Assembly: GCA_023266875.1 (NCBI GenBank) | Contig: JAHFOJ010000004.1 | Coordinates: 1 to 60,484 of the forward strand | Direction of reading: 5' to 3' | Source of the DNA: Candidatus Giovannonibacteria bacterium | GTDB taxonomy: Bacteria; Patescibacteriota; Minisyncoccia; JACPKW01; UBA11713 | DNA length: 60,484 nt | Part shown: piece by piece, positions 16,028 to 31,792 of the stretch | How the letters are laid out: each line of letters opens with the position of its first letter | How positions within the stretch are numbered: position 1 is the stretch's first letter | Notes under the pieces: model-generated | Seen by the model: only the letters and a program-made list of their open reading frames with translations | The model's database searches: none | What the model was told of the DNA's origin: nothing | Program-made: the position numbers and the translations under genes

Positions 16028-17338
16028 TTAGATATATTTATCATTATTAATGAGATGTGACATCAGATAAATAGTTTTCTTTCTTGGGCGGAGGAATGGA
16101 TACCTATGAAGTTCATTTTCGAAATTCCAGCGCATTTCCTCAACAAGATCTAAGTTTTCAAACGCGATATTATTTTTTTCAGAGGGGTCATTCTCTAAAT
16201 CATAAAGTTCGTCCACGAAAAACTTTCGAGTATGATTTATAAACTTATATTTTTTGTTTTGTATACAAAATCCTTCCCGCTCTGTTTCGGCCAATGCCGA
16301 CAAAATTAGATTATTTTCTAATGTATTTAAAAGAGATGTGCCATGTAGCTGTTCATCAAGTTTTATTCCGATTGCATCCAGTATAGTAGGCATAATATCA
16401 ACGCTCCGCACTATTTGATTAGCGACTTTATGATTGAATCCAGGGATATAAATTATTAATGGCACGTGAAGGAGCTCGTTATATAGTTGTTTGTGGCCAA
16501 ATATCTTGTGCTCTAAAAATTCTTGGCCATGATCAGAGGTGAATATTATTATCGTTTTTTCCAGCAAACCCAACTTAGATAAATAATCTAATAATCTCGC
16601 AAAGAAATCGTCAACATATTTTATTGCGCCATCATATATAGCTTTATAGTACTCGATATCTTCATAATTTTTAGATCTTCGCATTGCGCTGATAAAAGAT
16701 CTATAAGATTCTACACGGATGTTTTGTAACCACTTTATTTTTTGTGGGAACCCATCGGTAATTTTAAAAGGCCCATCATATCCATCGCTGAAGAGGTTTA
16801 TGTAAGGCCAAGGTGAGTCCCATGGGTTATGTACCACGTAAGTATGAAAAAAAACGAAGAAACTTTCATTTTTAGCTTGTTCTAAGAAATATAAAATTTC
16901 TTTTTCTGGTATCGAGCCCAGGCCTCTATAATTTCCTGCATCATATGGATTGGTTGAATAGTAATCAAAGCCCCTCGAAAAACCAAATACTGGTTCTAGT
17001 TGGGCGCCGTCTGTAAAGCCAGCAGTTCGGTAATCATTTTTTTTTAAAATTTCTGCAAAAGTAGTGATGTTCTCGTTAAGCACATAAACCTTACCTCCAT
17101 TTTCAGCGTCGGCTATGCTCAATATTCCATGATATGTGGGATAACGGGCAGTCATTATGGACATAAATGATGGGGCAGTCTTAGGAGCCTGAGAATAGCA
17201 ATTTTTGAATAAAATGCTTTTTTTCGCAAAATCGTCTATTGCCGGAGAGGTTGGACGTTTGTATCCATAACACCCCAAATGATCAGCGCGGAGAGTATCT
17301 ATACCTATTAATATGACATTGTAAGGATTTTTTATCAT
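16028..17338 (-). CDS. Sulfatase-fold (alkaline phosphatase superfamily) enzyme with Thr at the nucleophile position
   Basis: IGIDTLRADHLGCYGY metal-binding N-terminus. The canonical C/S-x-P-x-R position reads T-A-P-S-F. No signal peptide or TM helix. Confidence 0.8.
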   Translation of the reverse strand: MIKNPYNVILIGIDTLRADHLGCYGYKRPTSPAIDDFAKKSILFKNCYSQAPKTAPSFMSIMTARYPTYHGILSIADAENGGKVYVLNENITTFAEILKKNDYRTAGFTDGAQLEPVFGFSRGFDYYSTNPYDAGNYRGLGSIPEKEILYFLEQAKNESFFVFFHTYVVHNPWDSPWPYINLFSDGYDGPFKITDGFPQKIKWLQNIRVESYRSFISAMRRSKNYEDIEYYKAIYDGAIKYVDDFFARLLDYLSKLGLLEKTIIIFTSDHGQEFLEHKIFGHKQLYNELLHVPLIIYIPGFNHKVANQIVRSVDIMPTILDAIGIKLDEQLHGTSLLNTLENNLILSALAETEREGFCIQNKKYKFINHTRKFFVDELYDLENDPSEKNNIAFENLDLVEEMRWNFENELHRYPFLRPRKKTIYLMSHLINNDKYI

Positions 17339-17397
17339 GCTATGCTTATTTTGTGTATAATATCATTTTTAAATTATTTTAGAATAACTAAATCCAA

Positions 17398-18168
17398 ATG
17401 GCAGAAAAATCAAGATATCTATCGAATAGTGAAAGGACGGCGCTAATAACCGGCGGCATCACAGGGATAGGTCGAGCTATTACATCACGTTTGGCAAGGG
17501 ATGGTTTTTCTTTAGCAATAAATTATAAAGGTTCGGAAAAAAATAGTTTTATTAGATCACTTAGAAAAGAATTGGAATTTCATAATGTAAAATATGTATT
17601 GATTAAGGCAGATATCTCAAAAATATTAGAGGTTGAGAGAATGATTAAAATTGTAGAAAAAAACTTTGGCAAGGTAGACGCGTTAATCAACAACGCGGGA
17701 ATAAATCAGAATCAAAATTTTAGTAATTTGGATTTTAGTAATTTTGATAAAATACTAGATGTAAATTTGCGCGGTGCTGTGATGATCACTAAATATACAC
17801 TCCCATTATTTGAAAAAGCTCTCTTGCCAAGGATAATTTTTATTTCTTCAGTAAATGCATTTGTTGGCTCTGCTGCCAGAGTAGCCTACACGGTTTCTAA
17901 AAGCGGGCTTTTGGGCTTGACCAAAGCTTTGGCATTAGAGCTCGCCCCAAAAGTTCTCGTAAATTCGATAGTCCCAGGTTATATCGATACTGACATGTTT
18001 AGAAGATTTAAATCAGAAAATCCATACACGAAAATTAAAAGGATCCCATTAAAAAGGATTGGTCTGCCGGAAGATGTTGCTGGTGCTGCGTCTTTTTTGT
18101 GTTCCCCGGACAGCTCGTATATTACGGGTCAATGTATACACGTTAATGGAGGTTTATTTTTATCGTAA
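17398..18168 (+). CDS. Short-chain dehydrogenase/reductase (FabG-like)
   Basis: TGGITGIGRA cofactor motif, NNAG and the catalytic YTVSK. Confidence 0.85.
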   Translation: MAEKSRYLSNSERTALITGGITGIGRAITSRLARDGFSLAINYKGSEKNSFIRSLRKELEFHNVKYVLIKADISKILEVERMIKIVEKNFGKVDALINNAGINQNQNFSNLDFSNFDKILDVNLRGAVMITKYTLPLFEKALLPRIIFISSVNAFVGSAARVAYTVSKSGLLGLTKALALELAPKVLVNSIVPGYIDTDMFRRFKSENPYTKIKRIPLKRIGLPEDVAGAASFLCSPDSSYITGQCIHVNGGLFLS

Positions 18169-18863
18169 TGACGAATTCTAAATTAGTGGCAGCGGTTATA
18201 TTGGCTGGCGGGCAAAGCGTACGGTTTGGGAAATCTTTTAAACAATTTGCCAAAATAAACGGGAAGCCGCTCATTTCATATTCTTTGGGTGTGTTTATTA
18301 AATGTAAATTTATACAGAATATAATAATTATTGCGCCAAAGAGAAGAATAGCTTATGCGAATAGATTAGTACGGCGTCTCAATGATTCTAGGATCCAAGT
18401 AGTCGAGGGTGGCGAATATCGCAGGCAGTCTGCGTTAAAAGCATTGATTTTTTTAAAAAGAATTTCTCCAGATTATGTAATTTTTCATGATGCTGCGAGG
18501 CCATTTATCAGTCAAGAAATGGTTAGTGGCGTTTTAGCGGAGGCTTCACGAACTGGCGGCGCAGTTATTGCTACGAAGGCTACTGATCTGGTTCTAAAGG
18601 CAGACAATCATAAATTTATAAAAAGTGTTTCTCAAAAAGAAAAAATCTTTTTTGGACACACCCCACAATGTTTTCAGTTCGATTTAATTTTAGCGGCGCA
18701 TTTAAAGTGCGCGAAAATATTACAGGATGCGGATAATATAGAATTAGTATTAAATACAAACAAACGCGCGCGAATAAACGTGGTTGAATATTCGCCTGCT
18801 GGTAGCCCGAAGCTTACCTATAAACAAGACTTGATGGCGATGAGGCTATTTCTAAGGAATTGA
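18168..18863 (+). CDS. IspD/TarI-family sugar-/alditol-phosphate cytidylyltransferase
   Basis: AVILAGGQSVRFG...K N-terminal motif of the IspD/TarI family. Its start overlaps the SDR stop by 1 nt. Confidence 0.8.
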   Translation: MTNSKLVAAVILAGGQSVRFGKSFKQFAKINGKPLISYSLGVFIKCKFIQNIIIIAPKRRIAYANRLVRRLNDSRIQVVEGGEYRRQSALKALIFLKRISPDYVIFHDAARPFISQEMVSGVLAEASRTGGAVIATKATDLVLKADNHKFIKSVSQKEKIFFGHTPQCFQFDLILAAHLKCAKILQDADNIELVLNTNKRARINVVEYSPAGSPKLTYKQDLMAMRLFLRN

Positions 18864-18866
18864 TTT

Positions 18867-20210
18867 ATGAAATCTAGGGTGATAGATAATCCAAACCCAA
18901 ATGCAACCCTCGGTTTTGTATTGTTTTATCCCTTTCATTTCTATGTTTATAAAAATGTTTATAAGAATATAAAATATAAATCAGAATTCATAGTTGATTT
19001 GGGACGTTTTTATCCGTTTGCTGATCAGCAAGTGAATCTGCTCACTAATATTATTAAATTGCTTAACAAGCATGAGGCGAATTACAGGATTATCTACTAT
19101 GAAGACTATACAAAAGAAGATTATTTAAAGATGTTTTTTTCAAAGTATTATGGGCTCGTTTCGCTTATGGAGCGCGGTTGTTTGTTGCTCTCATGTAATA
19201 GAAACAAAAGGAAAATACATATGAATTATGGGGCTGGTAAAGAGTTGACGATGTTAAGACCTAGTATGCGCTTTTATGATTTAGCTTTGGCTTACGGCAA
19301 ACGAGCTCATAAACATCTTTCTTTATACACGTATTGTAAGATCGTGGGTAATCCGAAATTTGATGATTGGTTTGCAAACGAGCTGGATAAAGAATTATCA
19401 GCTGATCTGACTTCAAAAATTGAGAGTAACAAAAAAACACTTCTTTACTTACCTACTCACGGCGACCTTACATCGATGGACGCTTTAGCGCTGCCGTTGC
19501 AGCACCTTTCTAAAATTTATAATGTTGTTGTTAAATTGCATTATTATAATGTTTACGAAGAACGTGAGCGGGTTAGCAAGTTTGAGGGTAATAATATAAT
19601 TTTATATGATGATTCAGCTGATTTGTTGCCTCTTTTAAAAATTGCTGACGTCGTTATTTGTGATAATTCAAGCGCTATATTTGATGCGATATTAGCTGAT
19701 AAGCCAGTTGTCGTGGCAGATTTACTCTCTCAAGACTACATAGATTTTGAACATAAGAAACCCGCGGCACTTCGAGGGCGCATATCTACCGCATTGACTT
19801 ACTCCGGGAGCATAGAACAATTGATCAAAAAGAATAAATTGGTGGTTACCGTTTCATCGCCATCGCAGCTTGCGGATGCAATAAAAATAGCTCTAGATGA
19901 CAAGGCGTTTTTTAAGGATGCGCGGGAAACACTAAGAAAAGAACTTTTTGCATTCAGAGATAAATATTGTGGCAAACGCGCAGCTTCGTCCATTGAGGAA
20001 TTAATGATTATGAAAAAAATGCGTCAAAAAACACCCCTCGCCCAGGCTCTTGACGCCGCCGAACAATTGCAAAAAAACAATTCGCAACACTTTATGCCAA
20101 TGTCGCAATGGCTACGAAGCGAAAACATTAAAATAAATAAAAAGATATATCTATTTGTTTTGAAAGTTCTCGAAGAAATATTTAATCGGAAGTTGTACAT
20201 AAAAAATTGA
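18867..20210 (+). CDS. CDP-glycerol/CDP-ribitol polyol-phosphate transferase (TagB/TagF/TarL family)
   Basis: C-terminal half resembles TagF-type catalytic domains (LLYLPTH...; VICDNSSAIFDAILADKPVV). Lies in an operon with the cytidylyltransferase. Confidence 0.7.
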   Translation: MKSRVIDNPNPNATLGFVLFYPFHFYVYKNVYKNIKYKSEFIVDLGRFYPFADQQVNLLTNIIKLLNKHEANYRIIYYEDYTKEDYLKMFFSKYYGLVSLMERGCLLLSCNRNKRKIHMNYGAGKELTMLRPSMRFYDLALAYGKRAHKHLSLYTYCKIVGNPKFDDWFANELDKELSADLTSKIESNKKTLLYLPTHGDLTSMDALALPLQHLSKIYNVVVKLHYYNVYEERERVSKFEGNNIILYDDSADLLPLLKIADVVICDNSSAIFDAILADKPVVVADLLSQDYIDFEHKKPAALRGRISTALTYSGSIEQLIKKNKLVVTVSSPSQLADAIKIALDDKAFFKDARETLRKELFAFRDKYCGKRAASSIEELMIMKKMRQKTPLAQALDAAEQLQKNNSQHFMPMSQWLRSENIKINKKIYLFVLKVLEEIFNRKLYIKN

Positions 20211-20253
20211 GCATTCGTCAGCTCTTTTTCCGACGCGCTTTCTATTTTGTTTT

Positions 20254-21396
20254 ATGATATATAACGAATCATTGACGAAATTTTTTTGTTTGATAAGCTT
20301 AATAAAAATGACTAATCAATTATTTCAGCCGAAAAGTCTTGTTTTGCAGTGGCATATAACCGAACGATGCAATTGGCGGTGCAAACATTGCTACCAAACT
20401 TCGTATACGACGCCGGAGATGGATTTGAAAATGATGGAAAATATATTGGCGCAATACGTCGGACTATTAAAAAAATGGAATATCCCGCGCCGGCATGCCA
20501 GAATTCAGATTACAGGAGGCGAACCTTTTGTGCGCCGCGACATTTTTCAATTTTTGGAGAAAGTTTATAAGTTATCCGACCATTTCCAATGGACACTTTT
20601 GTCTAACGGCTCTTTTTTGACAGAAGACAAGGTCAAACTGCTTAAATTATTCGGCATCCAATCATATCAGGTGAGCATGGAAGGATTGGAGAAGACTAAT
20701 GATGAGATCAGAGGAGAAGGCAGTTTCAAAAAAATTCTAAAAGCAATAGAACTTCTTGTTTGGGCGAAAATACCATCAAGGGTTTCCTTAACCTTAACCC
20801 GGAAAAACCTTCCGGAGATTAAAGGGTTGGCCGATCTTTTGGCTCCCTTGGGGGTGCGTGGCTTGGGAGTGAGAAGAATAGTTCCGTGGGGATCGGGAGC
20901 GGCTATGAAAGAATATGTTCTTGAGCCGCAGGAGCTGAGGGGGCTTTACCGAGAGATAGAAGAAATCAACCGAACCATGATCGCGAACGGGCACTCTTTA
21001 AAAGTAACCGGAGGGTGCGAAAACGGTATTTTTAATGATGAGATTTCTGGGGAAGGGCTGATGTCGCACGGAGTTTGCGGGGTGACCTACGGCAGAATAT
21101 TGATAGTATTGCCGAACGGAGATACATTGGCTTGTCGGAGACTGCCGATTATTCTTGGCAATCTTCACGAAAAATCGATGGAAGAAATTTATTATTCTCC
21201 GCTTTACGAAAGCTGGCGCCAAAAAGAAGATGTCCCTTCTGTCTGCCAAGCATGCCCAAGTTATCAGCATTGTTTCGGCGGAGCAAAATGCGTAACTTAC
21301 GGGATGACCGGCAAAACCGCTCCCGATGTCCAATGCTGGAAATTATTTAACAGCCTAGAAGAAGCCGCTCACAGAATTAAAAATGAATCCCGTTAG
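20254..21396 (+). CDS. Radical SAM enzyme with C-terminal SPASM domain (peptide-maturase-like)
   Basis: CNWRCKHC (CxxxCxxC) near the N-terminus. C-terminal CX14GX4C ... CQACPSYQHCFGGAKC ... C, a seven-Cys SPASM-type pattern. Alternative start ATG 20308. Confidence 0.85.
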   Translation: MIYNESLTKFFCLISLIKMTNQLFQPKSLVLQWHITERCNWRCKHCYQTSYTTPEMDLKMMENILAQYVGLLKKWNIPRRHARIQITGGEPFVRRDIFQFLEKVYKLSDHFQWTLLSNGSFLTEDKVKLLKLFGIQSYQVSMEGLEKTNDEIRGEGSFKKILKAIELLVWAKIPSRVSLTLTRKNLPEIKGLADLLAPLGVRGLGVRRIVPWGSGAAMKEYVLEPQELRGLYREIEEINRTMIANGHSLKVTGGCENGIFNDEISGEGLMSHGVCGVTYGRILIVLPNGDTLACRRLPIILGNLHEKSMEEIYYSPLYESWRQKEDVPSVCQACPSYQHCFGGAKCVTYGMTGKTAPDVQCWKLFNSLEEAAHRIKNESR

Positions 21397-21505
21397 AGGC
21401 CGCGATCGCCTGTAAACGCATTTATTATTAATAATAAAAAGATGATTAACTTTATAAATAACACATGCAAATTGCGGCTATATCGCGATCTGCCTCTAAC
21501 GGGAT
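21387..21505. repeat. Inverted-repeat element, copy 2 (ATCCCGTTAGAGGC ... GCCTCTAACGGGAT)
   Basis: Perfect 14-bp arms (21387-21400 / 21492-21505) with further imperfect GATCGC pairing and an AT-rich interior. The left arm contains the radical SAM stop codon. The right arm contains ATG 21504. Confidence 0.7.
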
Positions 21506-22718
21506 GAAAGTTTTATTTCTAACTAAATATCCGCCAATAGAAGGCGGCGTTTCCGCGCAGAATTATTGGCTGGCAAGGGCGTTGGGAGAAAAGGATGTTC
21601 AAATTTCCGTCGTGACGAACGCTTTGTTGGTGGAAGATGCTTACCGTGAAAATATAAATTGGCTGGATGGCGAAGTTTCAAGCAAATTTCAGCCCAAAAA
21701 TGTTTTTTTGTATTCTTTAAAAAATCAAACACCAACGCATATACCTTATTCTCCGGCGTATCTTTCTCGCCTGGTGAATTTGGGCCTAAAAGCGATAGCC
21801 GAACGAGGCGCGGATGCCGTATACGCTCATTATTTGGAGCCCTACGCCTCCGCGGGATTTATTTTAAAAAAAATAACCGGCCTTCCTTTGGTTATCAAGC
21901 ACGCAGGGTCTGATATTTGGAGGCTTTTGCGCAGTGAAGATTTTAAATATTTTTTAGGATGGGTTATAAAGTCCGCGGATGCACTGTTAACTTCAGAATC
22001 GCTTTCTCCCATGTTTAAGGAATTGGGGGTGCCGCAAAAAAAAATTAAATATATCCGGCGCGCCGTAAACCCAGCTCAATTTGCTTCAAAGGGCGCTCGT
22101 TTTGATTTTTCAAAAGCGGGCTTTGCGATCCCTCCCAATGTTCCGCTTTTGACTTACATCGGCAAGGCCAATTTAAACAAAGGGCTTTTTGAATTAATCG
22201 AGGCTCTATCCGGGATGAGTTCAGATTTCAGATTTTTATTTGTTTCTAACGGGCCGAAATTTGAAGAACTCAAGGCCAGAATAAATTCACATTCTAACAT
22301 TAAAGATAAGTTTGTTTATTTGGGGTTTGTGCCTCCATGGGAAATTCCCAATATCTTGCGCGCGACTGATTTTTTGTTCCAACTGGAAAACGATTTCCCC
22401 GTTCCAATTCACGGGCCGGTTCAGCCGTCTGAAGCAATCGCTTGCGGCACCCCCGTGATTTTAAGCGAGGAAATATTTTCCAAACTTAGGCCTCATTTTC
22501 CGAGCACGAGCGGCAAATTCATCGTGGTTAAGGACCCAAGAGATCCGCAAGCGCTTCGGGAAGTTTTGAAAAAAAGCTTAAATGCGATCGAGGCGGCGAA
22601 AAGTGATGCGGGCGAGATAAGAGAGGAGTTTTTGTCACGCAATCATTGGGATCAATATGTTTCAGATTATATCGAACTTTTCGATTCTGTTGCCGGACGG
22701 CGGTTCAATATTTTTTGA
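21465..22718 (+). CDS. Glycosyltransferase family 4-like
   Basis: MKVLFLTKYPPIEGGVS N-terminus typical of GT4 (probable true start ATG 21504). GT-B C-terminal domain with an E..AcG.PVI-like segment. Confidence 0.8.
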   Translation: MQIAAISRSASNGMKVLFLTKYPPIEGGVSAQNYWLARALGEKDVQISVVTNALLVEDAYRENINWLDGEVSSKFQPKNVFLYSLKNQTPTHIPYSPAYLSRLVNLGLKAIAERGADAVYAHYLEPYASAGFILKKITGLPLVIKHAGSDIWRLLRSEDFKYFLGWVIKSADALLTSESLSPMFKELGVPQKKIKYIRRAVNPAQFASKGARFDFSKAGFAIPPNVPLLTYIGKANLNKGLFELIEALSGMSSDFRFLFVSNGPKFEELKARINSHSNIKDKFVYLGFVPPWEIPNILRATDFLFQLENDFPVPIHGPVQPSEAIACGTPVILSEEIFSKLRPHFPSTSGKFIVVKDPRDPQALREVLKKSLNAIEAAKSDAGEIREEFLSRNHWDQYVSDYIELFDSVAGRRFNIF

Positions 22719-23545
22719 GCCCTTTCGATATCTGTCATTATCATTTCTTCAAAATTTTCTTTGAAATTATCATCGCGCTCTATAATAACGGTTTTAATAT
22801 CGCATTTTCCGGCAACATACTCAAGCAGCTGCCAAATTCCTTCGTTAATCCCATTTAATTCCTCCGAATGAGTATCATAAAACATATTATTATGCCGGTG
22901 GATTCTGCCTCCGGCGAGATGAATTTGCACGACATTTTCCAGCGGGAACCTTTCAAGCAAACGCAATGGATTTTCTTTGCGATTATGCGAATTAATATGT
23001 ATATTCGCCAAATCAAGTAAAAGGCCGCATCCGGTTCGTCTGCAAACCTCTTTAATAAATTCCGGTTCCTCGAAATCTCCCCCGGGTATTGTAAAAAATG
23101 AAGTGATATTTTCAAGCACCAATGGAAGTCTTAAAAAATTTTGCGCTTTATTTATTTTACTCACTACGATATCAAGAGTTTCTTTGGTAAACCAAAGAGG
23201 CGAGAGATGGCCAATGCTAACGCCGTCAACCTCAGTCAGGGCAAAATGGTCGCTATAATACGGCGCTTTGATGTAATGGCAAAAGCCCTCTATTTTTTTA
23301 AGATAATCAAAATTAATATTTTCGGCGGCGCCAATTGAAAGGTTGAGTCCGTGCGGGATTAGCGGAAGTGAATCGCCGATTTTTTTCAAAAGTTTGTTTT
23401 CGATTAAATTCGTGTTGATATAATGCTCTGAAGTAACTTCAAGCACATCGATTTCGTTTTTACGCTCCACAATTTCATCAACCAACTCCGCTCGCAAGCC
23501 AAGCCCGACCCCGAAGAAGGGAATTTTTTTAAGCTCGTAATTCAT
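22667..23545 (-). CDS. DUF692 / MbnB-TglH-like multinuclear non-heme iron oxidase (MNIO) family protein
   Basis: TIM-barrel DUF692 pattern: GVGLGLR, EVTSEHY, HGLNLSIG, YSDHFA and LVLENITSF. ATG 23545 overlaps the partner stop as ATGA. The ORF track offers a TTG at 23569. Confidence 0.8.
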   Translation of the reverse strand: MNYELKKIPFFGVGLGLRAELVDEIVERKNEIDVLEVTSEHYINTNLIENKLLKKIGDSLPLIPHGLNLSIGAAENINFDYLKKIEGFCHYIKAPYYSDHFALTEVDGVSIGHLSPLWFTKETLDIVVSKINKAQNFLRLPLVLENITSFFTIPGGDFEEPEFIKEVCRRTGCGLLLDLANIHINSHNRKENPLRLLERFPLENVVQIHLAGGRIHRHNNMFYDTHSEELNGINEGIWQLLEYVAGKCDIKTVIIERDDNFKENFEEMIMTDIERAQKILNRRPATESKSSI

Positions 23546-24021
23546 AATATTTTTAAATTCTTTTCCCAAAGTGTTTCTTTATTGATAAGCAAAGAAATGT
23601 TAAGAAAATCTGAAATGCCGGCGTTTTGGGCGGCAAGATAGCTTTTGAATAAATCGCTTAACATAAAGCCTTTGTCCGGAAGAGTTTTTAAGATGTTAAA
23701 AGCTCCGGTGCCGATTTCAACTTTTTTTATTTCGTCCTGATTTTTAAAAAATAACATTGGCCCGTTTATGTAGGCGGATGACGCCGCGACAATGTTTGGA
23801 TTTTTAGCTAATATTTTTTTTATCATCTTGTTTTTCTTATTGATCAGCGATTCCGCGAAAAGTTTCAGCGGCGTTTTAGGAAGGGCTGAAATCGCCTTTT
23901 TTTCGCGATCGTCCAAATTATATTTCTTATAAAAGACCTCTTTGTCGGATAAAAAGTCTGTGCGAGTTGATTTGTCTGTATAAATATCAACTAGCGCTTT
24001 TTGAAAATTTATTAAAGCCAT
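23542..24021 (-). CDS. Hypothetical protein, candidate MNIO partner (position and size analogous to MbnC/TglI/DUF2063-type partners)
   Basis: Translationally coupled to the DUF692 gene (ATGA). Start ATG 24021 lies 6 nt after a TATAAT. The function rests on genomic context only. Confidence 0.55.
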   Translation of the reverse strand: MALINFQKALVDIYTDKSTRTDFLSDKEVFYKKYNLDDREKKAISALPKTPLKLFAESLINKKNKMIKKILAKNPNIVAASSAYINGPMLFFKNQDEIKKVEIGTGAFNILKTLPDKGFMLSDLFKSYLAAQNAGISDFLNISLLINKETLWEKNLKIL

Positions 24022-24027
24022 TAGGAA

Positions 24028-24033
24028 ATTATA
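24028..24033 (-). promoter_or_regulatory. -10 box TATAAT (minus strand) 6 nt upstream of ATG 24021
   Basis: The minus strand reads TGTT-TATAAT-TTCCTA-ATG. Confidence 0.45.
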
Positions 24034-24082
24034 AACATTCAATGTCTTGCAAGCAAGAAGTAGAAACCGTAGTATTAGTAGT

Positions 24083-24376
24083 ATGAGGGGCAAGGCAGAA
24101 AAGCTGAATAGCATAAGAAAGACGCTGTTTAGGGCTGTCTCCGGTTTACTGGTGGTGGCGGCCGTATCAATATTGAGATTTGTTTATTCGGTTGGCGCGG
24201 GCGATTACCAAAACAAAGTTAGCCGGCACAATAATGCCGTAGATAAGGCCTTGAGCATTAATATCGCTAGCGCCGATGTGCCTGCCCCCGAAAGTTGCGG
24301 TGGCGGCTGTATGGCTTCTTGCGCAGGACCTAGTTGCGCTTCTTGTTCGGGCTGTAATAGTTGCGGTGGCTATTGA
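24083..24376 (+). CDS. Putative RiPP precursor: Sec-signal-like N-terminus plus a Cys-rich C-terminal core
   Basis: 98 aa from the only upstream ATG. It has a basic n-region (MRGKAEKLNSIRK), a hydrophobic h-region (LFRAVSGLLVVAAVSIL) and a C-terminus SCGGGCMASCAGPSCASCSGCNSCGGY with 7 Cys. It is divergent from the MNIO operon. Confidence 0.55.
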   Translation: MRGKAEKLNSIRKTLFRAVSGLLVVAAVSILRFVYSVGAGDYQNKVSRHNNAVDKALSINIASADVPAPESCGGGCMASCAGPSCASCSGCNSCGGY

Positions 24377-24415
24377 GCAATAAATTAAAAAAAGAGTTTG
24401 GCAACTTTATCATAA

Positions 24416-25519
24416 ATGGAGCATAATAAAAAAATACTTATTTTAGTGGTTTCCATCTTGCTTCTTGGAGCGGGTTTTTATTTTTGGCAGGCGCGCGCTC
24501 CAAAGCCGCCGGCTTATCTAGAAAATCTAAATACCGCTCGGCAACTTTTTAAAGAAGGCGATACCGATCAGTCACTTGATTACGCTAATAAAGCATTATT
24601 GGAAGCGGGATCAAATAAACAAGCTGAAGCTGTCACAAAGTTGCTAATAGCGCTTATTTACTTAAGAAAAACTGACTTGGCTGGCCAAACCAAAGCTATT
24701 CAATTAATGAAAGAAATTGCCGGGAATGCGGCGTATCCTAATTTTGAACGCGCTTTAGCTCTGCAATATATCGCCGATACCTGGGTATGGCAAAATCGCT
24801 CTCAAGAATTCGTTAATGTAATTTTTAGCGATGAACCATACGCGTCTTTTTTGTCTAAATCTACAGTCACAAGCGGTATTCGCAAGATATATGAGTATTC
24901 GATATCGCTTTATCCTTTGCCTGTCGCGGAATACAGCGTTGCCAAATGGAACAGTAATGTTCTTTGGAATGCCATAAACGCTCCAAAGGGAACTTTCAAG
25001 CTAGCCTTGCCTGAAAAAAATTATATAGACGCCGCCGAAGAACATCTCAAAAAAGGAGACGACGCATTGCCGCGTTTTATGTCGCTCAAAAAAAATAACG
25101 GAGCGGAAGTCAGCCGTTCCTATTTGCTTAAAGGCATAGCGCTAGGGCAATTGGCGGAGCTTGAAAAAAAACCTGAATATAATGCCATGGCAGAGGATGC
25201 ATTTAAAAAATCGCAAGATATTTTAAACCAAAGTTCTAATGAGCACTTTTCTCCCATAATCAGGCCATGGCTTAATTTTTATTACGCTGTTTTTCTGGAG
25301 AGAGCATACGGAAAGCAAAGGATTGCGGATATCAATAATCTTTTGACATATATGATAGCAAAAGTTTCGGAAACGAATAATATTATTGCGAAATTCATAG
25401 CACGCTGGGACGATAGCCAGCAAAGATTAGGTACTTACGAGGGCCAAGGCGCTTCGGCGTTGGCCAAAATCAATCCGGCTTTTAAAGAATTATTAAGAAG
25501 CCTGGGCTGGAAGATCTAA
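24416..25519 (+). CDS. Hypothetical membrane-anchored helical-repeat (TPR-like) protein
   Basis: N-terminal TM helix, followed by alpha-helical repeat-like sequence. Confidence 0.6.
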   Translation: MEHNKKILILVVSILLLGAGFYFWQARAPKPPAYLENLNTARQLFKEGDTDQSLDYANKALLEAGSNKQAEAVTKLLIALIYLRKTDLAGQTKAIQLMKEIAGNAAYPNFERALALQYIADTWVWQNRSQEFVNVIFSDEPYASFLSKSTVTSGIRKIYEYSISLYPLPVAEYSVAKWNSNVLWNAINAPKGTFKLALPEKNYIDAAEEHLKKGDDALPRFMSLKKNNGAEVSRSYLLKGIALGQLAELEKKPEYNAMAEDAFKKSQDILNQSSNEHFSPIIRPWLNFYYAVFLERAYGKQRIADINNLLTYMIAKVSETNNIIAKFIARWDDSQQRLGTYEGQGASALAKINPAFKELLRSLGWKI

Positions 25520-25659
25520 TATGAATAACTGGCACATCTGGGGTTCAGTAATAGAAATAATATTTTTCCCTTTTTTAATTTCCAGAAATATGCCCACAAA
25601 AATCATCTGACAAAAGCATAAAAACGCCTCATATTGTTCTGGCGCTTGCGTAAAAAATA

Positions 25660-25668
25660 TGCTATAAT
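25660..25668 (+). promoter_or_regulatory. Extended -10 TGCTATAAT, 6 nt before ATG 25675
   Basis: TGCTATAAT-TAATTA-ATG. Confidence 0.5.
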
Positions 25669-25674
25669 TAATTA

Positions 25675-25938
25675 ATGAAAACCAATGAAAGAGGCAAAAA
25701 TAACCAAATTAAATTCCGGCAGTCGCTTTTTTGGGATGTGGACCCCAAGACAATTGATCCAAAAAAGAACGCGCCATATGTGATAGAACGAATACTGGAT
25801 TTCGGTAAAGATAATGAAGTAAAGTGGTTATGGAATAAATATCAAAGAAGAACGATTCACAATGTTGTTAAAAAACGACGCGGCTTAAACAAACGAACCC
25901 GTGCTTTATGGATGCTCCTTACCGCTCCAGAGAAATAG
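25675..25938 (+). CDS. Small conserved-looking protein, putative antitoxin partner of the AbiEii-like gene
   Basis: 87 aa. Overlaps the downstream nucleotidyltransferase gene by 31 nt. The function is inferred from the pairing only. Confidence 0.5.
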   Translation: MKTNERGKNNQIKFRQSLFWDVDPKTIDPKKNAPYVIERILDFGKDNEVKWLWNKYQRRTIHNVVKKRRGLNKRTRALWMLLTAPEK

Positions 25939-26585
25939 TCTGGCGCACAGATATTTTGCCGGAAAATGCCCAGAGGGCGCTTAATTACTTGAGCGGTCAG
26001 AAATGGCTTAAGCACAGTTCTTGGTATATGGCCGGCGGTACCGCGCTCGCGCTTCAGATTGGGCACCGAACTTCCCAGGACTTGGATTTTTTTAATCCTA
26101 GGAAGTTTTCTTCTCAAATATTGATTAAGAAGTTTTCCTCCGTGGATTGGAAAACGACGATTTTTCAAGAGGGAACAATTTACGGCGGACTATTAGGTAC
26201 GAAAGTCAGCTTTATATTCTATCCTTTTTTTCTTCCAAAAGAACAGCAGCTTTTTTATGGCTCGGTTCGCGTTTTGCATGAGCGGGATATCGCGGTTATG
26301 AAAATTTTAGCAATAAGTCAGCGCGGAACCAAAAGAGATTTTGTCGATCTTTATTGGTATTGCCAAAACCGCGAACCCCTGCTTCAAATCGCGCAAAGAC
26401 TTGAGGCGCAGTATCCGAACACAAAGCATAACTATCACCATATTATTAAAAGCATGGCTTATTTCGAGGACGCGGAAGCTGATCCAATGCCTCGGATATT
26501 TTTTAAGGCGTCGTGGCCCGACATAAAAAAGTTTTTCGAGCGGGAAGTCCCGCGCGTTACCCGCGAATTTTTAGGATTGCGCTGA
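25908..26585 (+). CDS. AbiEii/AbiGii-family nucleotidyltransferase toxin (type IV TA)
   Basis: YMAGGTALALQIGHRTSQDLDFF motif characteristic of the AbiEii (DUF1814) family. Confidence 0.7.
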   Translation: MDAPYRSREIVWRTDILPENAQRALNYLSGQKWLKHSSWYMAGGTALALQIGHRTSQDLDFFNPRKFSSQILIKKFSSVDWKTTIFQEGTIYGGLLGTKVSFIFYPFFLPKEQQLFYGSVRVLHERDIAVMKILAISQRGTKRDFVDLYWYCQNREPLLQIAQRLEAQYPNTKHNYHHIIKSMAYFEDAEADPMPRIFFKASWPDIKKFFEREVPRVTREFLGLR

Positions 26586-26588
26586 ATC

Positions 26589-27329
26589 ATGAAAAACCGG
26601 CATATTTGGATTTCAGCTACCGCCATTCTTTTTTTTGTTTTTTTTATTTTACAGAGTCAAAGAGAAAAGCCCGAAGCTAAAGACGCGAAAGCGTATTTGG
26701 CATTGGGGAATTCTTATTTTAACGGATCAGCCGGATACAATGTGGCGAAAGCGGAGGAAGCGTTTAAAAAAGCCGTTCTGGCCGATCCTAAAATCACTTA
26801 CGGCCACTATCAATTGGCGCGAGTTTATTTTATAGAGAAAAAAAATTCAGAGGCGCTTTCGGCAATAAATAAGGAGCTTGAAATAAATCCGGAAAATCTG
26901 CGCTCGCTTTATGTCCGTGGCCTGATCAAGGCGGAAATCGGAGATTTGTCGGGAGCAGAAGATGATTTTAGGCGATTTGCCCAATGGATGCCGAAAGAAT
27001 GGTCCGGATGGAACGATCTCTCGTGGATTTTAATGAAAGAGACAAAATATAAAGAAGCGGAAGCTGAAGTTAGAAGCGCGTTTGCAAACGCGATAGGCGC
27101 GGATACAAATCCGTGGCTTTGGAATCATTTGGGGCTGGCTTTGCTGAACCAAAAAAAATACGGCGAAGCCGAAAAAGTATTTCTTCGCGCAAAAGAGCTG
27201 GTTGGGAAATTAACGGTTAAAGAATGGCAAGCGGCGTATCCCGGGAACAACCATAAATCCGCCGCGGATGGGCTCGGCGCTTTCGGAAGGGCTGTGGATT
27301 TTAATCTGGAGCAAAGCAGGTTAAAATAG
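26589..27329 (+). CDS. Tetratricopeptide-repeat protein, membrane-anchored
   Basis: N-terminal TM helix and several TPR-like 34-aa repeats (A..Y..LG..Y...G.Y..A...F..A). Confidence 0.7.
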   Translation: MKNRHIWISATAILFFVFFILQSQREKPEAKDAKAYLALGNSYFNGSAGYNVAKAEEAFKKAVLADPKITYGHYQLARVYFIEKKNSEALSAINKELEINPENLRSLYVRGLIKAEIGDLSGAEDDFRRFAQWMPKEWSGWNDLSWILMKETKYKEAEAEVRSAFANAIGADTNPWLWNHLGLALLNQKKYGEAEKVFLRAKELVGKLTVKEWQAAYPGNNHKSAADGLGAFGRAVDFNLEQSRLK

Positions 27330-27334
27330 ATATA

Positions 27335-30300
27335 ATGCGCGATTCAAAGAACGCGAATTTAATAGTCGTTGCCGCCTTAGCGATAGCCGGCCTTTATCTT
27401 TTTTTTGCTTCGGTCGGGAGCGACTCTGCCTCTAAAAATCAAGTTTTTCTAAAAAGCCCCAAATGGGCGGATGAAACAGGTCGGGGTCTCTCGGTTCCAG
27501 CTTGCGGATCGTCGATGGTGTGCGGAGTTAATGACACTAATGACGCCGATGATCCCGGACCGCTTGTCGCGTGCGCCTCGTGCGCCAACGGCGCGCCGTC
27601 CATAGATTTTAGTTGGATTGATAATGGAAACACCGGCGGTTATACATGTTACAGGGCGCGCCTTGATGCCAAAATCGGGTCTAATCCGGAGTTTTTGGTT
27701 AGGCGCGACTTGCCGTGCGGTACCGCACTCGCGCCAGGCAATTTTACTTGGGACAATTCAATTCTGTCGCTTTCGCCAATCTCTAACACCACTTATAATT
27801 ACTCCATCAAATACGAGAGTGTTGTGCATTCGACATGGGCTCCCCCATTCAATGGCGCAACAGCCATGGTTGCTTTGGATGCCAATCATTTAGTTTTAAT
27901 TTTTTACAGTGGCGCCTCACTTAATACATTAGTATCTAATGATGCCGGCGCGACTTGGACCCAAGGAAGGACCATTGATGGTACTGTTGGGTCAACAGGA
28001 GACTATTTGGTTTCCGCCGACTTGGTAGGCAATAATATCTTTGTAAGTTATTATTCCCGCGACGGCACCAATGATTTGAGATTTGCAAAATCCACCGACG
28101 GCGGCGTCACCTGGACGGCCCCCATTACTCTCGATGGCGATGGCATCGCCCCTCATAGTTCAAATGACAGGGGATCAAATAACTCAATAGACGCCATAGA
28201 CGCGAACAATATTTACATAAGTTATTATGACAAAACCGCCACCGATCTTTATTTTATAAAATCTAATGGCGGAGGATTGGCTGGAACTTGGAGTGCGCCG
28301 AAGCTTGTTGATGTAAGTGGTTCTACAATTTTAGGCATACAAAGTTCAATAAAAGCATTTAATTACGGTGTCAATACCAGTGTTTTTATTGGTTACTACG
28401 ACGCCACCGCCGCTAATCTAAATGCAAAATTTGCGAGATCAATCAATGGTGGCGATACTTGGCTTGTTGGCGATATCGTAAATGTTGAGACGTCCGGCAA
28501 TGTTGGGGCATCTCCTTCTGTTGATACGCTTGACGGTATTACAGTTTATTTTGCTTACGAGAAGGTTGGTTTATTTCCTTCAAGACTTGCAAAGACAACA
28601 AATTGCAACACGAGCTGTAGTTGGGGGGCGCCTGTTAATATTAGTAACCTTTCTGGCTCTGTTTCAATTCGTGAAATAAACGCATCCACTGTTTACGCGG
28701 CTATTAGGCATAGCGACGACCCAGTCGAAATTTATTTTGCAACAACGTCCAATTCTGGAACAAGTTGGGCGTCTCCGGTGCTGGTGCCAGCCGGACTCGA
28801 TACAAAATTACTTGCCGTTGATCCATTAAATCTATATACATTCGGTATAGGTGATCCAGGTGGGGTCAATGGTGCTCACTCAATCAACGGCGGGGCAAGT
28901 TGGACTAATTTTAACTTGGGTACTACCATCTCCGGTTTCCCGAGCAGTTCTTTTTACGACAATTTTGACCAGGCCGGGAACGCGACAACAAACGGCTGGA
29001 CGCTGGACGCCGGGTCGTCCGCCGATCCGCATCGCTGGCTAGGCGCTGACAGCACGGGAATGATTGCTGGCACCGGGGGCACCAAGGGCTATTTATTGCG
29101 CGGCAGCAGCGCGAGTAATCCCGACGACGGAGTTCGGCTTACGATATCTGGAGGAAATTTTAATCCTTTCACGATTCAATACGACAGAACCACTAAACTT
29201 AGTTCGGGCACGGGGCAAACCTTTGTCGCGGAGTATTCTTTAAATGGCGGCACGAGCTGGACGCCTCTCGAGGCGCCACTTGCCGGCACAAACGGATATT
29301 CCACAAAGATTGTTTCCAATTTACAAAATCCGAATAACGCGCCGGTCACTATCCATTTTTATGTTAACGGCGGCTCGACGGTTGATTTCCGCGCGGCCGT
29401 TGATAACGTTTATATTACCGGAAGCGGAACGCCCGGGCACGTTATAAAAAGCGGAACGTTTTCAACTCCGGCTTTCTGCCCGGCTGTAGATTATATTGTG
29501 GACGGACTTGATACTTCCCCCCCAGGTTTAATCGCGGGGCAACAGGTAACATTCGCCGCGACTGTTCAAAATTCCGGAGCGCTTGCGGCTTCAGCTGTTT
29601 CCCAGACCCGCCTTAGGCTCGATATTGGAAATGACGGCACGTATGATGTTACAACCCCGCCTTTTGCAGACCAGACTACTGGGGCGCTCGCCGCAGGCGC
29701 TTCAGAAGTTGAGAATTGGACAAACGCATGGACTGCCATTGTCGGAGACCACAAGTTTGAGGTTTGCGCCGACACCACGCACGCAATTATAGAATCTAAC
29801 GGCGAGAATAATTGTACGACCCGGACGTTTAATGTTGGCGCGGGGACGAATGTGGTGTCGCTTGCGGCAAACCCGACAAGCGGCTCCACCCCTCTCACAT
29901 CGGCGCTGACGGCGAGTGTCAGCGGCACAGCTCTTGGTACGATTAATTATTCTTTCTGGTTTAATTGTTCAAATGTGACCACAAGTATTGCGGCGGCGGA
30001 AACTTCTTGCGGTACTTTGCCCGCGCCAGTTTTGGGAAGCTGTGTTTCAAATTCAGTTGGCGCGAAATGCAATGGAATGAGCGCTTTGACTCAAGTCGTG
30101 AACAATACATATTCTTCCGTAGGCACTTATAAGCCAAAAATTATTGTGGAACGCGGTAGTGCGCCTAATGCCCAGAGTCAGGCGGATGTTACTGTAAATC
30201 CCGCCAATGTTGCGCCTTCAGTTAATGCGGGGCCAGACCAGACTATTACGCTACCTGCGTCTGCCAATCTGGACGGCACTGTATCTGACGATGGATTGCC

Positions 30301-30997
30301 AAATCCGCCGGCGACCGTTTCGACAACATGGTCCAATCCCGGAACAGTTTTTTTTGGAAACACGGCTTCGATCGATACCACCGCGAGTTTTTCTGCTGCG
30401 GGCACATACGTTCTGCGCCTTACTGCTAACGATTCTTTATTACAAAGTTCTGATACAGTCCAAGTTACGGTAAATCCTGCTCTGCCAGCCGCCGATTTTT
30501 CGCTGTCTAGCGGATCGATTTTTGTGACTATCATCCCCCCCGCCGGACAGACGACAGATTCATCGAAAACCACAGTGACTGTCAATCCTTTGCCTTTTGG
30601 TCCTCCTGCATATACTTCCAATGTGACGCTTACGTATTGTCCTCCCTCGAAAGGTGGTCTTTGCGCCCAAAGCAATGTGCCGGCTGGAACTGAATTTCGC
30701 TGGGGACCTGGAGCTGGCGTTGTTGGCACAACCACATTGACTTCAGCAAATTATTCGACCCTGTTTGGGGTGAAAATTCCTTCAAATACTCTACCCTCGC
30801 AAAATTACAGAATCATAATCAAAGGAGAAGGAACCGATGGCACAATCCATTATACAAATCCGGCATTGGAGTTAAACGTAGACAATCGTGATCCAGGCGT
30901 GATCGAGGTTATGCGCCCTATATTTGAAAAAATCGCAAGTAAATTGCGGAGTCTATTCCCAGAAGCCAATGCCTTTGATAAACCTCCGCACCAATAA
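27335..30997 (+). CDS. Large surface protein with BNR/Asp-box repeats and Ig-like/PKD-like modules
   Basis: 1220 aa with an N-terminal anchor. Repeated SxDxGxTW boxes: SNDAGATW, STDGGVTW, SINGGDTW, SNSGTSW, SINGGASW, SLNGGTSW. The C-terminal half is Thr/Ser/Ala-rich with beta-modules. Confidence 0.8.
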   Translation: MRDSKNANLIVVAALAIAGLYLFFASVGSDSASKNQVFLKSPKWADETGRGLSVPACGSSMVCGVNDTNDADDPGPLVACASCANGAPSIDFSWIDNGNTGGYTCYRARLDAKIGSNPEFLVRRDLPCGTALAPGNFTWDNSILSLSPISNTTYNYSIKYESVVHSTWAPPFNGATAMVALDANHLVLIFYSGASLNTLVSNDAGATWTQGRTIDGTVGSTGDYLVSADLVGNNIFVSYYSRDGTNDLRFAKSTDGGVTWTAPITLDGDGIAPHSSNDRGSNNSIDAIDANNIYISYYDKTATDLYFIKSNGGGLAGTWSAPKLVDVSGSTILGIQSSIKAFNYGVNTSVFIGYYDATAANLNAKFARSINGGDTWLVGDIVNVETSGNVGASPSVDTLDGITVYFAYEKVGLFPSRLAKTTNCNTSCSWGAPVNISNLSGSVSIREINASTVYAAIRHSDDPVEIYFATTSNSGTSWASPVLVPAGLDTKLLAVDPLNLYTFGIGDPGGVNGAHSINGGASWTNFNLGTTISGFPSSSFYDNFDQAGNATTNGWTLDAGSSADPHRWLGADSTGMIAGTGGTKGYLLRGSSASNPDDGVRLTISGGNFNPFTIQYDRTTKLSSGTGQTFVAEYSLNGGTSWTPLEAPLAGTNGYSTKIVSNLQNPNNAPVTIHFYVNGGSTVDFRAAVDNVYITGSGTPGHVIKSGTFSTPAFCPAVDYIVDGLDTSPPGLIAGQQVTFAATVQNSGALAASAVSQTRLRLDIGNDGTYDVTTPPFADQTTGALAAGASEVENWTNAWTAIVGDHKFEVCADTTHAIIESNGENNCTTRTFNVGAGTNVVSLAANPTSGSTPLTSALTASVSGTALGTINYSFWFNCSNVTTSIAAAETSCGTLPAPVLGSCVSNSVGAKCNGMSALTQVVNNTYSSVGTYKPKIIVERGSAPNAQSQADVTVNPANVAPSVNAGPDQTITLPASANLDGTVSDDGLPNPPATVSTTWSNPGTVFFGNTASIDTTASFSAAGTYVLRLTANDSLLQSSDTVQVTVNPALPAADFSLSSGSIFVTIIPPAGQTTDSSKTTVTVNPLPFGPPAYTSNVTLTYCPPSKGGLCAQSNVPAGTEFRWGPGAGVVGTTTLTSANYSTLFGVKIPSNTLPSQNYRIIIKGEGTDGTIHYTNPALELNVDNRDPGVIEVMRPIFEKIASKLRSLFPEANAFDKPPHQ

Positions 30998-31045: not shown

Positions 31046-31771
31046 ATGGAAGACGAACAAAATAATAATAGCGAAGAAAAAAATCAGTTCTTAATTCCGG
31101 CGAGCATAATCGTCGCTGGAGCGATCATCGCTTTCGCTGTTTTTTATTCGCGGGGGCCTGCTCCTGTAGCAGGCGTTAAGGATAATTCGGTCGATCAGGC
31201 AAAAAATTCCGCCGCCGCGGCTGAAGTTTCAAAAATTAGTGCGGAAGATTTTGTCCTCGGGGATAAGAGCGCGAAAGTGGTTTTCATAGAATATGGCGAT
31301 TACCAATGTCCTTTCTGCAAGCAATTTTTTCAGACTGTGGAGCCGCAGATAATTGATCAATATGTAAAAACTGGCAAGGTTGCCTTTGTTTGGCGCGATT
31401 TCGCGTTTTTGGACGGATCTCCGGACGGCGAATCTCATTTGGCCGCGGAGGCGGCGCGTTGTGCAGGCGAACAGAATAAATTTTGGGAATATCATGATGA
31501 GCTCTTTAGAAGACAAGGGCAGGAAAATGGGGGCGCGTTTAAGGCTGATAATTTAAAAAAATTTGCGACCTCGCTCGGACTTAACAGAAATAATTTTGAT
31601 TCATGTCTTGATTCGAGAAAATATAAAAAAGCCGTAGCGGATTCCACTCAAGGGGGAGGAGTTGCGGGAGTCAATGGGACACCGGCATCATTTATATCTG
31701 GAAAGTTTATTTCAGGCGCGGCGGCATATTCAAGCTTTGCAAGCGAAATTGATGCCGCGCTTAAAAAATAG
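31046..31771 (+). CDS. DsbA-family thiol:disulfide oxidoreductase, membrane-anchored
   Basis: TM helix and a thioredoxin fold with the CPFC active site. Confidence 0.85.
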   Translation: MEDEQNNNSEEKNQFLIPASIIVAGAIIAFAVFYSRGPAPVAGVKDNSVDQAKNSAAAAEVSKISAEDFVLGDKSAKVVFIEYGDYQCPFCKQFFQTVEPQIIDQYVKTGKVAFVWRDFAFLDGSPDGESHLAAEAARCAGEQNKFWEYHDELFRRQGQENGGAFKADNLKKFATSLGLNRNNFDSCLDSRKYKKAVADSTQGGGVAGVNGTPASFISGKFISGAAAYSSFASEIDAALKK

Positions 31772-31792
31772 AGATTTTTTCAATAACAAATT

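Follow-up and report, generated by a model that had tools for sequence, protein, structure and literature searches.

A putative RiPP precursor family beside a distinct MNIO subfamily in Patescibacteria-like bacteria

Most substrates of the oxidative enzymes that depend on multinuclear non-heme iron (MNIOs) are exported and Cys-modified, and among them the bufferins chelate copper via thiooxazoles (PMC12452194). Precursors with a Sec signal pair with partner proteins that carry DUF2063, whereas partners without DUF2063, termed PME-type 2, are paired with substrates that lack signal peptides (Antoine et al. 2025, PMC12452194). Here we describe an MNIO gene cluster on a 60,484-nt stretch of contig JAHFOJ010000004.1 from Candidatus Giovannonibacteria (the window, to whose positions all coordinates refer) and a small plus-strand open reading frame (ORF) at 24083–24376, whose residues are numbered from the ATG at 24083. 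We consider it reasonably probable that this ORF encodes the precursor of a ribosomally made peptide with post-translational modifications (RiPP), that it belongs to an uncatalogued MNIO-dependent family in Patescibacteria-like bacteria, and that its product is modified, exported, cleaved and metal binding.

The MNIO, a 292-aa member of DUF692/PF05114 encoded on the minus strand at 22667–23545, scored 248.5 bits against PF05114 (cutoff, 25). BufB (NF050167; 213.2 bits against a cutoff of 310) and HvfB (184 bits against 360) were the best-scoring characterised equivalogs, both below cutoff. As in the bufferins and oxazolins, a Cys-containing precursor with an N-terminal export-type signal would be modified in the cytoplasm by the MNIO and its partner, and by analogy the likely chemistry would be 5-thiooxazole formation and metal binding. 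The window differs from bufferin systems in that its precursor lacks the DUF2282 (Buf1), Buf2 and EGKCG signatures, its core varies strongly between members instead of forming a conserved folded domain, and its cleavage-type motif lies far from the hydrophobic segment; moreover, neither a DUF2063 partner nor a DoxX gene was present among the window ORFs scanned (most ORFs of at least 120 aa between 54 and 42111). A first-pass annotation of this ORF had linked it to substrates of the bufferin type. The missing signatures and genes, together with the sub-cutoff BufB score, ruled out membership of that family.

Comparison of the partner protein pointed to a different branch. Its N-terminal domain aligned with that of a 183-aa protein that follows the MNIO in Candidatus Uabimicrobium (locus L030 in our numbering of the loci compared here; hhalign 97.7%, E 1.9e-12, 76 N-terminal columns), and this homology therefore assigns the window system to the TIGR04222/PME-type 2 part of the MNIO landscape. 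The L030 substrate, which served as a positive control, scored 73 bits (cutoff, 43) as a true TIGR04222 membrane protein, and its tail carries GCGG repeats. The window system and this branch share an MNIO of the large BufB-like sequence group (36–40% identity to the window enzyme), a partner with a homologous N-terminal helical domain and no DUF2063 signature, and a substrate in which a membrane-spanning N-terminal part precedes an unstructured Gly/Ser/Cys tail predicted to face outward. DUF2063 was found neither in the window partner nor in 37 family members, even at E≤1. The differences are also considerable. In place of the multi-transmembrane TIGR04222 domain, to which the window, L091 and L007 precursors gave no match, the window precursor has a single hydrophobic helix, and both its conserved linker motif and its A|D junction are missing from the L030 tail. 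The window partner gene is followed by the MNIO gene with the precursor gene divergent, whereas known TIGR04222 systems are ordered precursor, MNIO, partner. The C-terminal domain of the window partner differs as well, and the system adds a family 4 glycosyltransferase (GT4), a helical protein with a single transmembrane (TM) segment and, often, a radical SAM/SPASM enzyme. Lastly, the window lineage is Patescibacteria-like, whereas TIGR04222 systems occur mostly in Actinomycetota. We conclude from these sequence comparisons that the nearest described kind is the TIGR04222/PME-type 2 branch.

The precursor ORF and its counterparts at related loci

Direct reading of the sequence showed that the plus-strand frame is open from a TTG at 24047, through the ATG at 24083, to 24376, and the gene is also represented by a 97-aa database gene call (P0001). 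The ORF limits, hydrophobic leader and Cys tail reported in the first-pass annotation were borne out, with small corrections: the product has 97 residues rather than 98 (98 codons counting the stop), the ATG at 24083 is the sole in-frame ATG at the 5' end but a second one lies within the core at 24311 (Met77), and the seven Cys fall within the last 26 residues (C72 to C94) rather than 27. The full 97-residue translation is MRGKAEKLNSIRKTLFRAVSGLLVVAAVSILRFVYSVGAGDYQNKVSRHNNAVDKALSINIASADVPAPESCGGGCMASCAGPSCASCSGCNSCGGY; it begins MRGKAEKLNSIRKTLFR-AVSGLLVVAAVSIL-RFVYSVGAGD and ends in ESCGGGCMASCAGPSCASCSGCNSCGGY. Residues 1–17 contain six K/R and one E, for a net charge of +5, and residues 18–31 (AVSGLLVVAAVSIL) are 14 uncharged hydrophobic residues between R17 and R32; these n- and h-regions, judged by eye, make up a predicted export-type N-terminus (24083–24175, plus strand), and a K/R-rich start and hydrophobic stretch occur in all homologues. 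Further along, the motif V-D-K-A-L-S (residues 53–58; 24239–24256), to which similar elements correspond in homologues, is a candidate recognition helix for the partner protein. The junction A62-S63-A64|D65 (24266–24277), a predicted leader/core cleavage site, reads A-S-A|D-V-P over residues 62–67 and stands directly before the Cys core, DVPAPESCGGGCMASCAGPSCASCSGCNSCGGY (33 aa, 7 Cys; 24275–24373, plus strand).

No Pfam or NCBIfam family matched the window precursor at E≤0.01, and relaxing the threshold to E≤10 gave spurious weak matches only; for the core, the only database match was to heterocycloanthracin (TIGR03601), a weak, compositional one at 16.3 bits against a cutoff of 35. A repeat scan found codon-level repeats in the core and nothing else, and no Rfam RNA family was detected within 20000–27500. 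Cys-rich ORFs as such are not rare: a six-frame scan of the window gave eight ORFs in which a run of 30 aa includes 5 or more Cys, most of them lying antisense to real genes. Only the precursor ORF among these eight has 7 Cys, and it alone shows conservation of position, architecture and junction motif, in 15 distinct related loci.

A word-index search of 5.8 billion protein sequences with the precursor returned only the query itself, and homologues were therefore sought through the neighbours of the MNIO enzyme. Searching with the MNIO revealed a distinct subfamily of ~50 clusters at 45–66% identity, set above generic relatives at ~40% or less. We read the loci of the closest MNIOs in six frames and found 15 distinct precursors near the MNIO-partner pairs of this subfamily: those of the window, L004 (with variant L003), L007, L010, L091, L092, L093/L161, L094/L009, L136, L159, L160 and L162, two in L163, and the N-terminus of a 490-aa protein in L158. 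On complete contigs, the MNIO-partner pair has a small ORF of the window architecture nearby, in most cases divergent from the partner gene, and L004, L007, L010, L091–L094, L136, L160, L162 and L163 have theirs in the position that corresponds to the window; the L159 precursor instead lies across the GT4 and radical SAM genes. Most of the 15 were unannotated or had been called in the wrong frame. Public gene calls run across the GC-repeat cores on the wrong strand or frame at L004 69–182, L007 5044–5172 and L161 5038–5322, yielding Ala/Val-rich pseudo-proteins. The empty protein search is thus explained by gene callers that missed the precursors or called the opposite strand or a wrong frame. 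Conservation beside the MNIO and partner genes argues that the precursor gene is genuine.

All 15 precursors have a K/R-rich N-terminus, a hydrophobic helix of 14–22 aa, a linker of 21–43 aa, an [A/V/T]-x-A|D junction and a Gly/Ser/Cys core. When 12 of them were aligned, A64 and D65 (window numbering) were the only invariant columns besides Met1, and the junction recurs in the three precursors outside the alignment. Most members have Ala at position –3 and the rest Val or Thr; Ala at –1 and Asp at +1 are constant (ASA|DVP, ANA|DVP, AYA|DGI, THA|DAP, ASA|DIS, AHA|DAP, AHA|DVV, VSA|DVT, AYA|DSP, ANA|DLP, ADA|DVA and VHA|DAP). A (D/R)(K/D)(A/S)L element often occurs in the linker 8–12 residues before the junction, as DKSL in L004, DKAL in L091/L092, RDAL/RDAF in L010/L163 and RDNL in L007. 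The cores hold 2 to 19 Cys and are rich in Gly, Ser and Cys, often as GC or SC repeats. The first-pass annotation had proposed aligning homologues for conserved Cys positions; these could not be aligned, and only core composition is conserved. Near-identical loci (L003 and L004; L091 and L092) keep the leader and change the core, and a conserved leader joined to a hypervariable core is, as judged from these alignments, the classic RiPP pattern.

The same note had compared the N-terminus to an n-h-c signal peptide with a SVGA/GD site. The n- and h-regions are present in all homologues; the VGA|GD site just after the hydrophobic segment is confined to the window, with no counterpart in any homologue, and a small-x-small site 3–7 residues after the h-region is not conserved in the 12-sequence alignment.

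Two variations on the precursor were observed. L163 encodes a second, paralogous precursor (141–509; ...SVHA|DAPAGTGG..., 2 Cys, very Gly-rich) beside a nitroreductase-family gene and ~4 kb from the main one. At L158 (7212–8684), the leader module (...NRADA|DVAGG...) heads the 490-aa protein, which has an internal GCTCGCGG stretch. The ~1 kb loci L001/L002, which hold the closest partner homologue, have an AbiEi-like gene at the precursor's place and are uninformative for the precursor.

The MNIO, its partner and the divergent gene starts

Residues H65, H100, E145, D178, N181, H209, D224, H226 and E256 of the MNIO are invariant among 53 subfamily members; we take them to be iron ligands from the structures of MbnB and TglH. 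The nearest solved structure is 3bww. The TGA of the partner gene (159 aa; minus strand, 23542–24021) overlaps the MNIO ATG as ATGA (23545–23542), and the same 4-nt overlap occurs in L003, L010 and L160, so that the two genes are translationally coupled.

An AlphaFold2 model of the partner, built from a 37-sequence alignment, reached a pLDDT of 94.6 and consists of five helices (residues 2–73), three strands, three helices and a final strand. In the model, the C-terminal order of secondary structure is a RiPP recognition element (RRE)/winged-helix-like pattern. The weak Foldseek matches comprised winged-helix domains, TglHI chains 8hci_A and 8hi7_A (E 2–3.3, TM-score 0.29–0.31) and the TbiB1 RRE, and one member of the partner family weakly matched NGO1945_C (E 0.061). 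Profile searches against PDB sequences returned nothing, either for the partner or for the 367-aa protein encoded downstream of the precursor. The N-domain family gave weak matches to LigA, Frankia_peptide and Os1348-NHLP (NHLP/LigA-like), and the window partner itself had no domain match in standard scans. At L158 (300–2477), an AsnB-like glutamine amidotransferase (725 aa) bears the partner domain as a C-terminal fusion, as would be expected of a portable leader-recognition module. In three loci the partner is shortened to ~102 aa, keeping the N-domain and a short tail without the beta-sheet domain (L159 1880–2188, L006 ~770–1078, L090 41–490). No precursor lies beside these truncated partners; that of L159 sits next to YcaO/nitroreductase genes.

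The minus-strand frame of the partner remains open to 24114, as had been noted from the sequence, and this 190-aa long reading (23542–24114) adds exactly 31 hydrophobic residues upstream of the ATG at 24021 and overlaps the plus-strand ORF at 24047/24083–24114. We therefore had to weigh the possibility that the long form starting at 24114 is the real gene and the plus-strand ORF a chance frame, as its open frame and hydrophobic extension might suggest. A profile search of 1.84 billion representative sequences found 62 partner relatives, nearly all ~160 aa long, in nearly all of which the match begins at residue 2, corresponding to Ala2 of the window protein. Almost every member of the 37-sequence alignment starts M-[S/A]-L-x-x-F-Q, matching the ATG at 24021, and a counterpart of the 31-residue extension was present in none of the 37. 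The database gene call is likewise the short, 159-aa form (P0002), and the plus-strand ORF is the one conserved in 15 distinct loci. The long gene, to which we attach scarcely any probability, is thus contradicted by conservation and was excluded. The overlap is an ORF-extension artefact, since partner relatives are ~160 aa long and their common start fits the ATG at 24021; the 31 upstream codons (24022–24114, minus strand) are spurious rather than part of the gene. The preference of the first-pass annotation for the short start, which left the overlap region to the precursor, was therefore upheld, and the conservation comparison it had suggested came out in favor of the plus-strand ORF. With the short start, the precursor and partner are divergent, non-overlapping genes separated by a 61-nt intergenic region (24022–24082).

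On the minus strand of this region, TATAAT (24033–24028) is followed after 6 nt by the ATG at 24021; facing the precursor is a weaker TTGCAA-N17-TAGTAT-N7-ATG arrangement. The window string TATAATTTCCT, with an ATG or GTG after it, recurs unchanged in L002 and L004, and in L004 it is preceded by TTGATC-N16. Because this string is identical in all three closest relatives, they also share the residues VYNFL just upstream of the partner Met1. The string could be a conserved –10 box 6 nt before the ATG/GTG, implying a leaderless mRNA. Alternatively, it could be a 7-codon coding extension from a TTG at 24042 (MNVYNFL-MAL...), and a partner start there likewise would not overlap the precursor. A consensus promoter scan listed neither divergent promoter, as their –35 boxes are weak, and the idea of a leaderless start therefore rests only on the conserved TATAAT-N6-start arrangement.

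Proposed maturation and competing explanations

We propose that in the cytoplasm the partner would bind the leader through its N-terminal helical and RRE-like C-terminal domains, probably at the DKAL-type motif, and would present the core to the MNIO. The MNIO would use O2 to oxidise core cysteines to 5-thiooxazole-type heterocycles, as in its nearest characterised relatives BufB and HvfB, and the radical SAM/SPASM enzyme and GT4 may add further modifications. The hydrophobic N-terminal segment would then take the peptide to the Sec/YidC machinery in an N-in/C-out orientation, and cleavage at A64|D65 would release the 33-residue modified core outside the cell. By analogy with the bufferins, the product would most likely be an extracytoplasmic, thiol/thiooxazole-rich binder of metal (copper). 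As a sequence, A64|D65 fits the –3/–1 rule for type I signal peptidase. DsbA, CcdA and rhodanese genes that recur in or beside the clusters count in favor of the export of a Cys-rich product, and the leader shared with the 490-aa L158 protein was counted as support for a portable export/pro module.

Several observations weigh against this proposal. Type I signal peptidase does not normally cut as far from the hydrophobic segment as the A|D junction, which lies 21–43 residues beyond it, and no dedicated protease gene was identified in the cluster. PME-type 2 partners have been published with signal-peptide-less substrates (PMC12452194). The MNIO scores below the BufB and HvfB cutoffs, so its reaction may differ, and the metal-binding role is extrapolated from distant relatives. 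A Foldseek search of the PDB with the partner model gave nothing significant (best E-value, 0.74). In addition, the partner is truncated in L005, L006 and L090, and no precursor could be detected near it.

In a rival reading, for which the lack of a protease gene in the cluster speaks, the peptide would stay uncleaved, as a single-pass membrane-anchored protein displaying its modified Cys/Gly/Ser tail on the surface, with A-D serving as an enzyme recognition feature. The hydrophobic stretch reaches 19–22 residues in some homologues in the 12-sequence alignment, which is enough for a TM anchor, and TIGR04222 proteins bear a similar Gly/Cys tail on a membrane domain and pair with an MNIO and an N-domain-homologous partner (PMC12452194). 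However, the small residues at –3 and –1 (Ala without exception at –1) fall precisely where leader meets core, as is typical of cleavage sites, and the L030 TIGR04222 tail has no such motif. The hydrophobic run in the window is just 14 residues between two Arg, and the same leader module precedes the 490-aa L158 protein, which looks soluble. We therefore regard retention of the uncleaved peptide in the membrane as unlikely and favor cleavage at A64|D65.

The radical SAM/SPASM peptide-maturase-like gene (20254–21396, plus strand; Pfam Radical_SAM plus SPASM) raises a further alternative, in which the core is mainly a substrate of this enzyme (or of a YcaO/dehydrogenase pair) and matures into a thioether- or azole-type antimicrobial while the MNIO acts elsewhere. 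The top two NCBIfam matches of the enzyme are SbtM (148.4 bits; cutoff, 350) and the radical SAM enzyme of the ACGX-repeat-peptide system (147.7 bits; cutoff, 400). As in those systems, the window has a radical SAM/SPASM gene next to a peptide with repeated small-residue–Cys–small-residue units; unlike them, its precursor fits neither family's peptide model, and the gene is dispensable in about half of the related loci. Scores of ~148 bits, far below the cutoffs, led us to reject membership of either system and also argue against the alternative itself. The enzyme adjoins GT4 in the window, L005, L006, L158 and L159; it is missing in L007, L010, L092, L160, L162 and L163, and none was seen among the larger ORFs of L094. 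Every complete locus, in contrast, has the precursor together with the partner and MNIO.

For the YcaO variant of this alternative, the evidence comes from L159, where the precursor lies between YcaO/nitroreductase genes and genes for the TM protein, radical SAM enzyme and GT4, from the second L163 precursor beside a nitroreductase gene, and from the weak heterocycloanthracin-like match of the core. The window resembles heterocycloanthracins and other thiazole/oxazole-modified microcins in its repetitive Cys/Gly/Ser-rich core, and L159 has both a YcaO and a nitroreductase-type dehydrogenase; the window leader is unrelated. YcaO was found in that one locus and not among the window ORFs scanned, and with the sub-cutoff TIGR03601 score this excluded membership of the microcin class. 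We consider it very unlikely that the core is chiefly a radical SAM or YcaO substrate, and the MNIO remains the preferred modifying enzyme.

The cluster encodes both an O2-dependent MNIO and a radical SAM enzyme that is O2-sensitive; the named family closest to the latter, SbtM, is reported to convert Cys to thiooxazole (Lewis et al. 2021) and makes thio(seleno)oxazoles. A broader conjecture is that the two enzymes offer independent routes to the same Cys heterocycle on one precursor, and that the precursor follows a new RiPP export logic of a signal-anchor, a long pro-region and a distal signal-peptidase-type A-x-A|D cut. We hold this combination to be quite improbable; if the two-route part were true, an organism at oxic/anoxic boundaries could mature the same metal-binding peptide under either regime.

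Conserved gene set, neighbouring genes and implications

Across the related loci, the conserved set comprises the precursor, a single-TM helical protein of ~345–390 aa, the partner, the MNIO and GT4, often with the radical SAM/SPASM enzyme. The single-TM protein of the window (367 aa; 24416–25519, plus strand) has a single N-terminal TM helix and an all-helical, tetratricopeptide repeat (TPR)-like body, and its homologues follow the precursor on the same strand in L007, L010, L092, L094, L159, L160, L161 and L163. It had no Pfam, NCBIfam or PDB match, and its single-sequence AlphaFold2 model had a pLDDT of 50. Six of these proteins, when aligned, were 19–31% identical to the window protein with four invariant positions besides Met1, so no catalytic motif is evident. 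The GT4 gene, identified by Pfam (21465–22718, plus strand), is convergent with the MNIO gene and overlaps its 3' end; a convergent GT4 is also found in L005–L008, L010, L094 and L158–L163, which is nearly all loci, and in L092 it is displaced by rhodanese, DsbA and CcdA genes. In L159 the genes are arranged on one strand in the order YcaO, nitroreductase, precursor, TM protein, radical SAM, GT4, a rearrangement of the same genes that points to a functional link rather than mere synteny.

Beyond this set, thiol-redox genes (DsbA-like, thioredoxin-reductase-like, CcdA-like and rhodanese) recur at window 31046–32761, L092 4799–6912 and L007 8240–8716; the DsbA-like gene near the cluster lies at window 31046–31771 and is also found in L005. 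Teichoic-acid-type genes and a sulfatase gene stand directly upstream of the radical SAM gene at 16028–20210 (SDR, IspD-like cytidylyltransferase and CDP-glycerol glycerophosphotransferase); a glycerophosphotransferase flanks the cluster in L159 (8680–9030) and a sulfatase in L158 (8953–9379). A toxin-antitoxin-like pair, consisting of a DUF6922 gene (25675–25938) and an AbiEii nucleotidyltransferase toxin gene (25908–26585), sits between the TM-protein gene and a TPR gene (26589–27329) that neighbours the cluster in related genomes. The TPR gene precedes one (27335–30997) whose 1220-aa product, secreted or at the surface, has BNR, CARDB and PKD-like domains, and in L005, L159 and L160 synteny with the cluster extends to the TPR gene and to a large Cys-containing protein. 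An IS200-like Y1 transposase gene is located at 32809–33447. The window is otherwise ordinary chromosome, with rpoB/C, ftsK, recA, pentose-phosphate genes and one tRNA-Thr.

Among species-representative genomes, members of the MNIO subfamily were present only in two Candidatus Kaiserbacteria metagenome-assembled genomes (L009 and L010), and the other matches were metagenomic; the window's own proteins are singletons in clustering at 90% identity. Our literature search found no paper tying MNIOs to Patescibacteria or the candidate phyla radiation (CPR), and the MNIO landscape paper and its supplements do not mention either. We conclude that the locus encodes a predicted RiPP system of the MNIO type in which the precursor family and the leader logic are new, the order of the genes is different and additional genes are conserved.

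The precursor family breaks the published correlation of signal-bearing substrates with DUF2063 partners. Its members are almost invisible to current pipelines, since their GC-repeat cores cause them to be missed or to be called in a wrong frame or on the wrong strand, and the leader together with the A|D signature provides a means of finding them. Their compact, hypervariable Cys-repeat cores offer a scaffold for the study of iterative MNIO chemistry. A conserved five- to six-gene RiPP cluster in Patescibacteria (CPR) is notable because these genomes are very small and have few recognised biosynthetic clusters, and its O2-requiring MNIO bears on how Patescibacteria cope with oxygen and metals.

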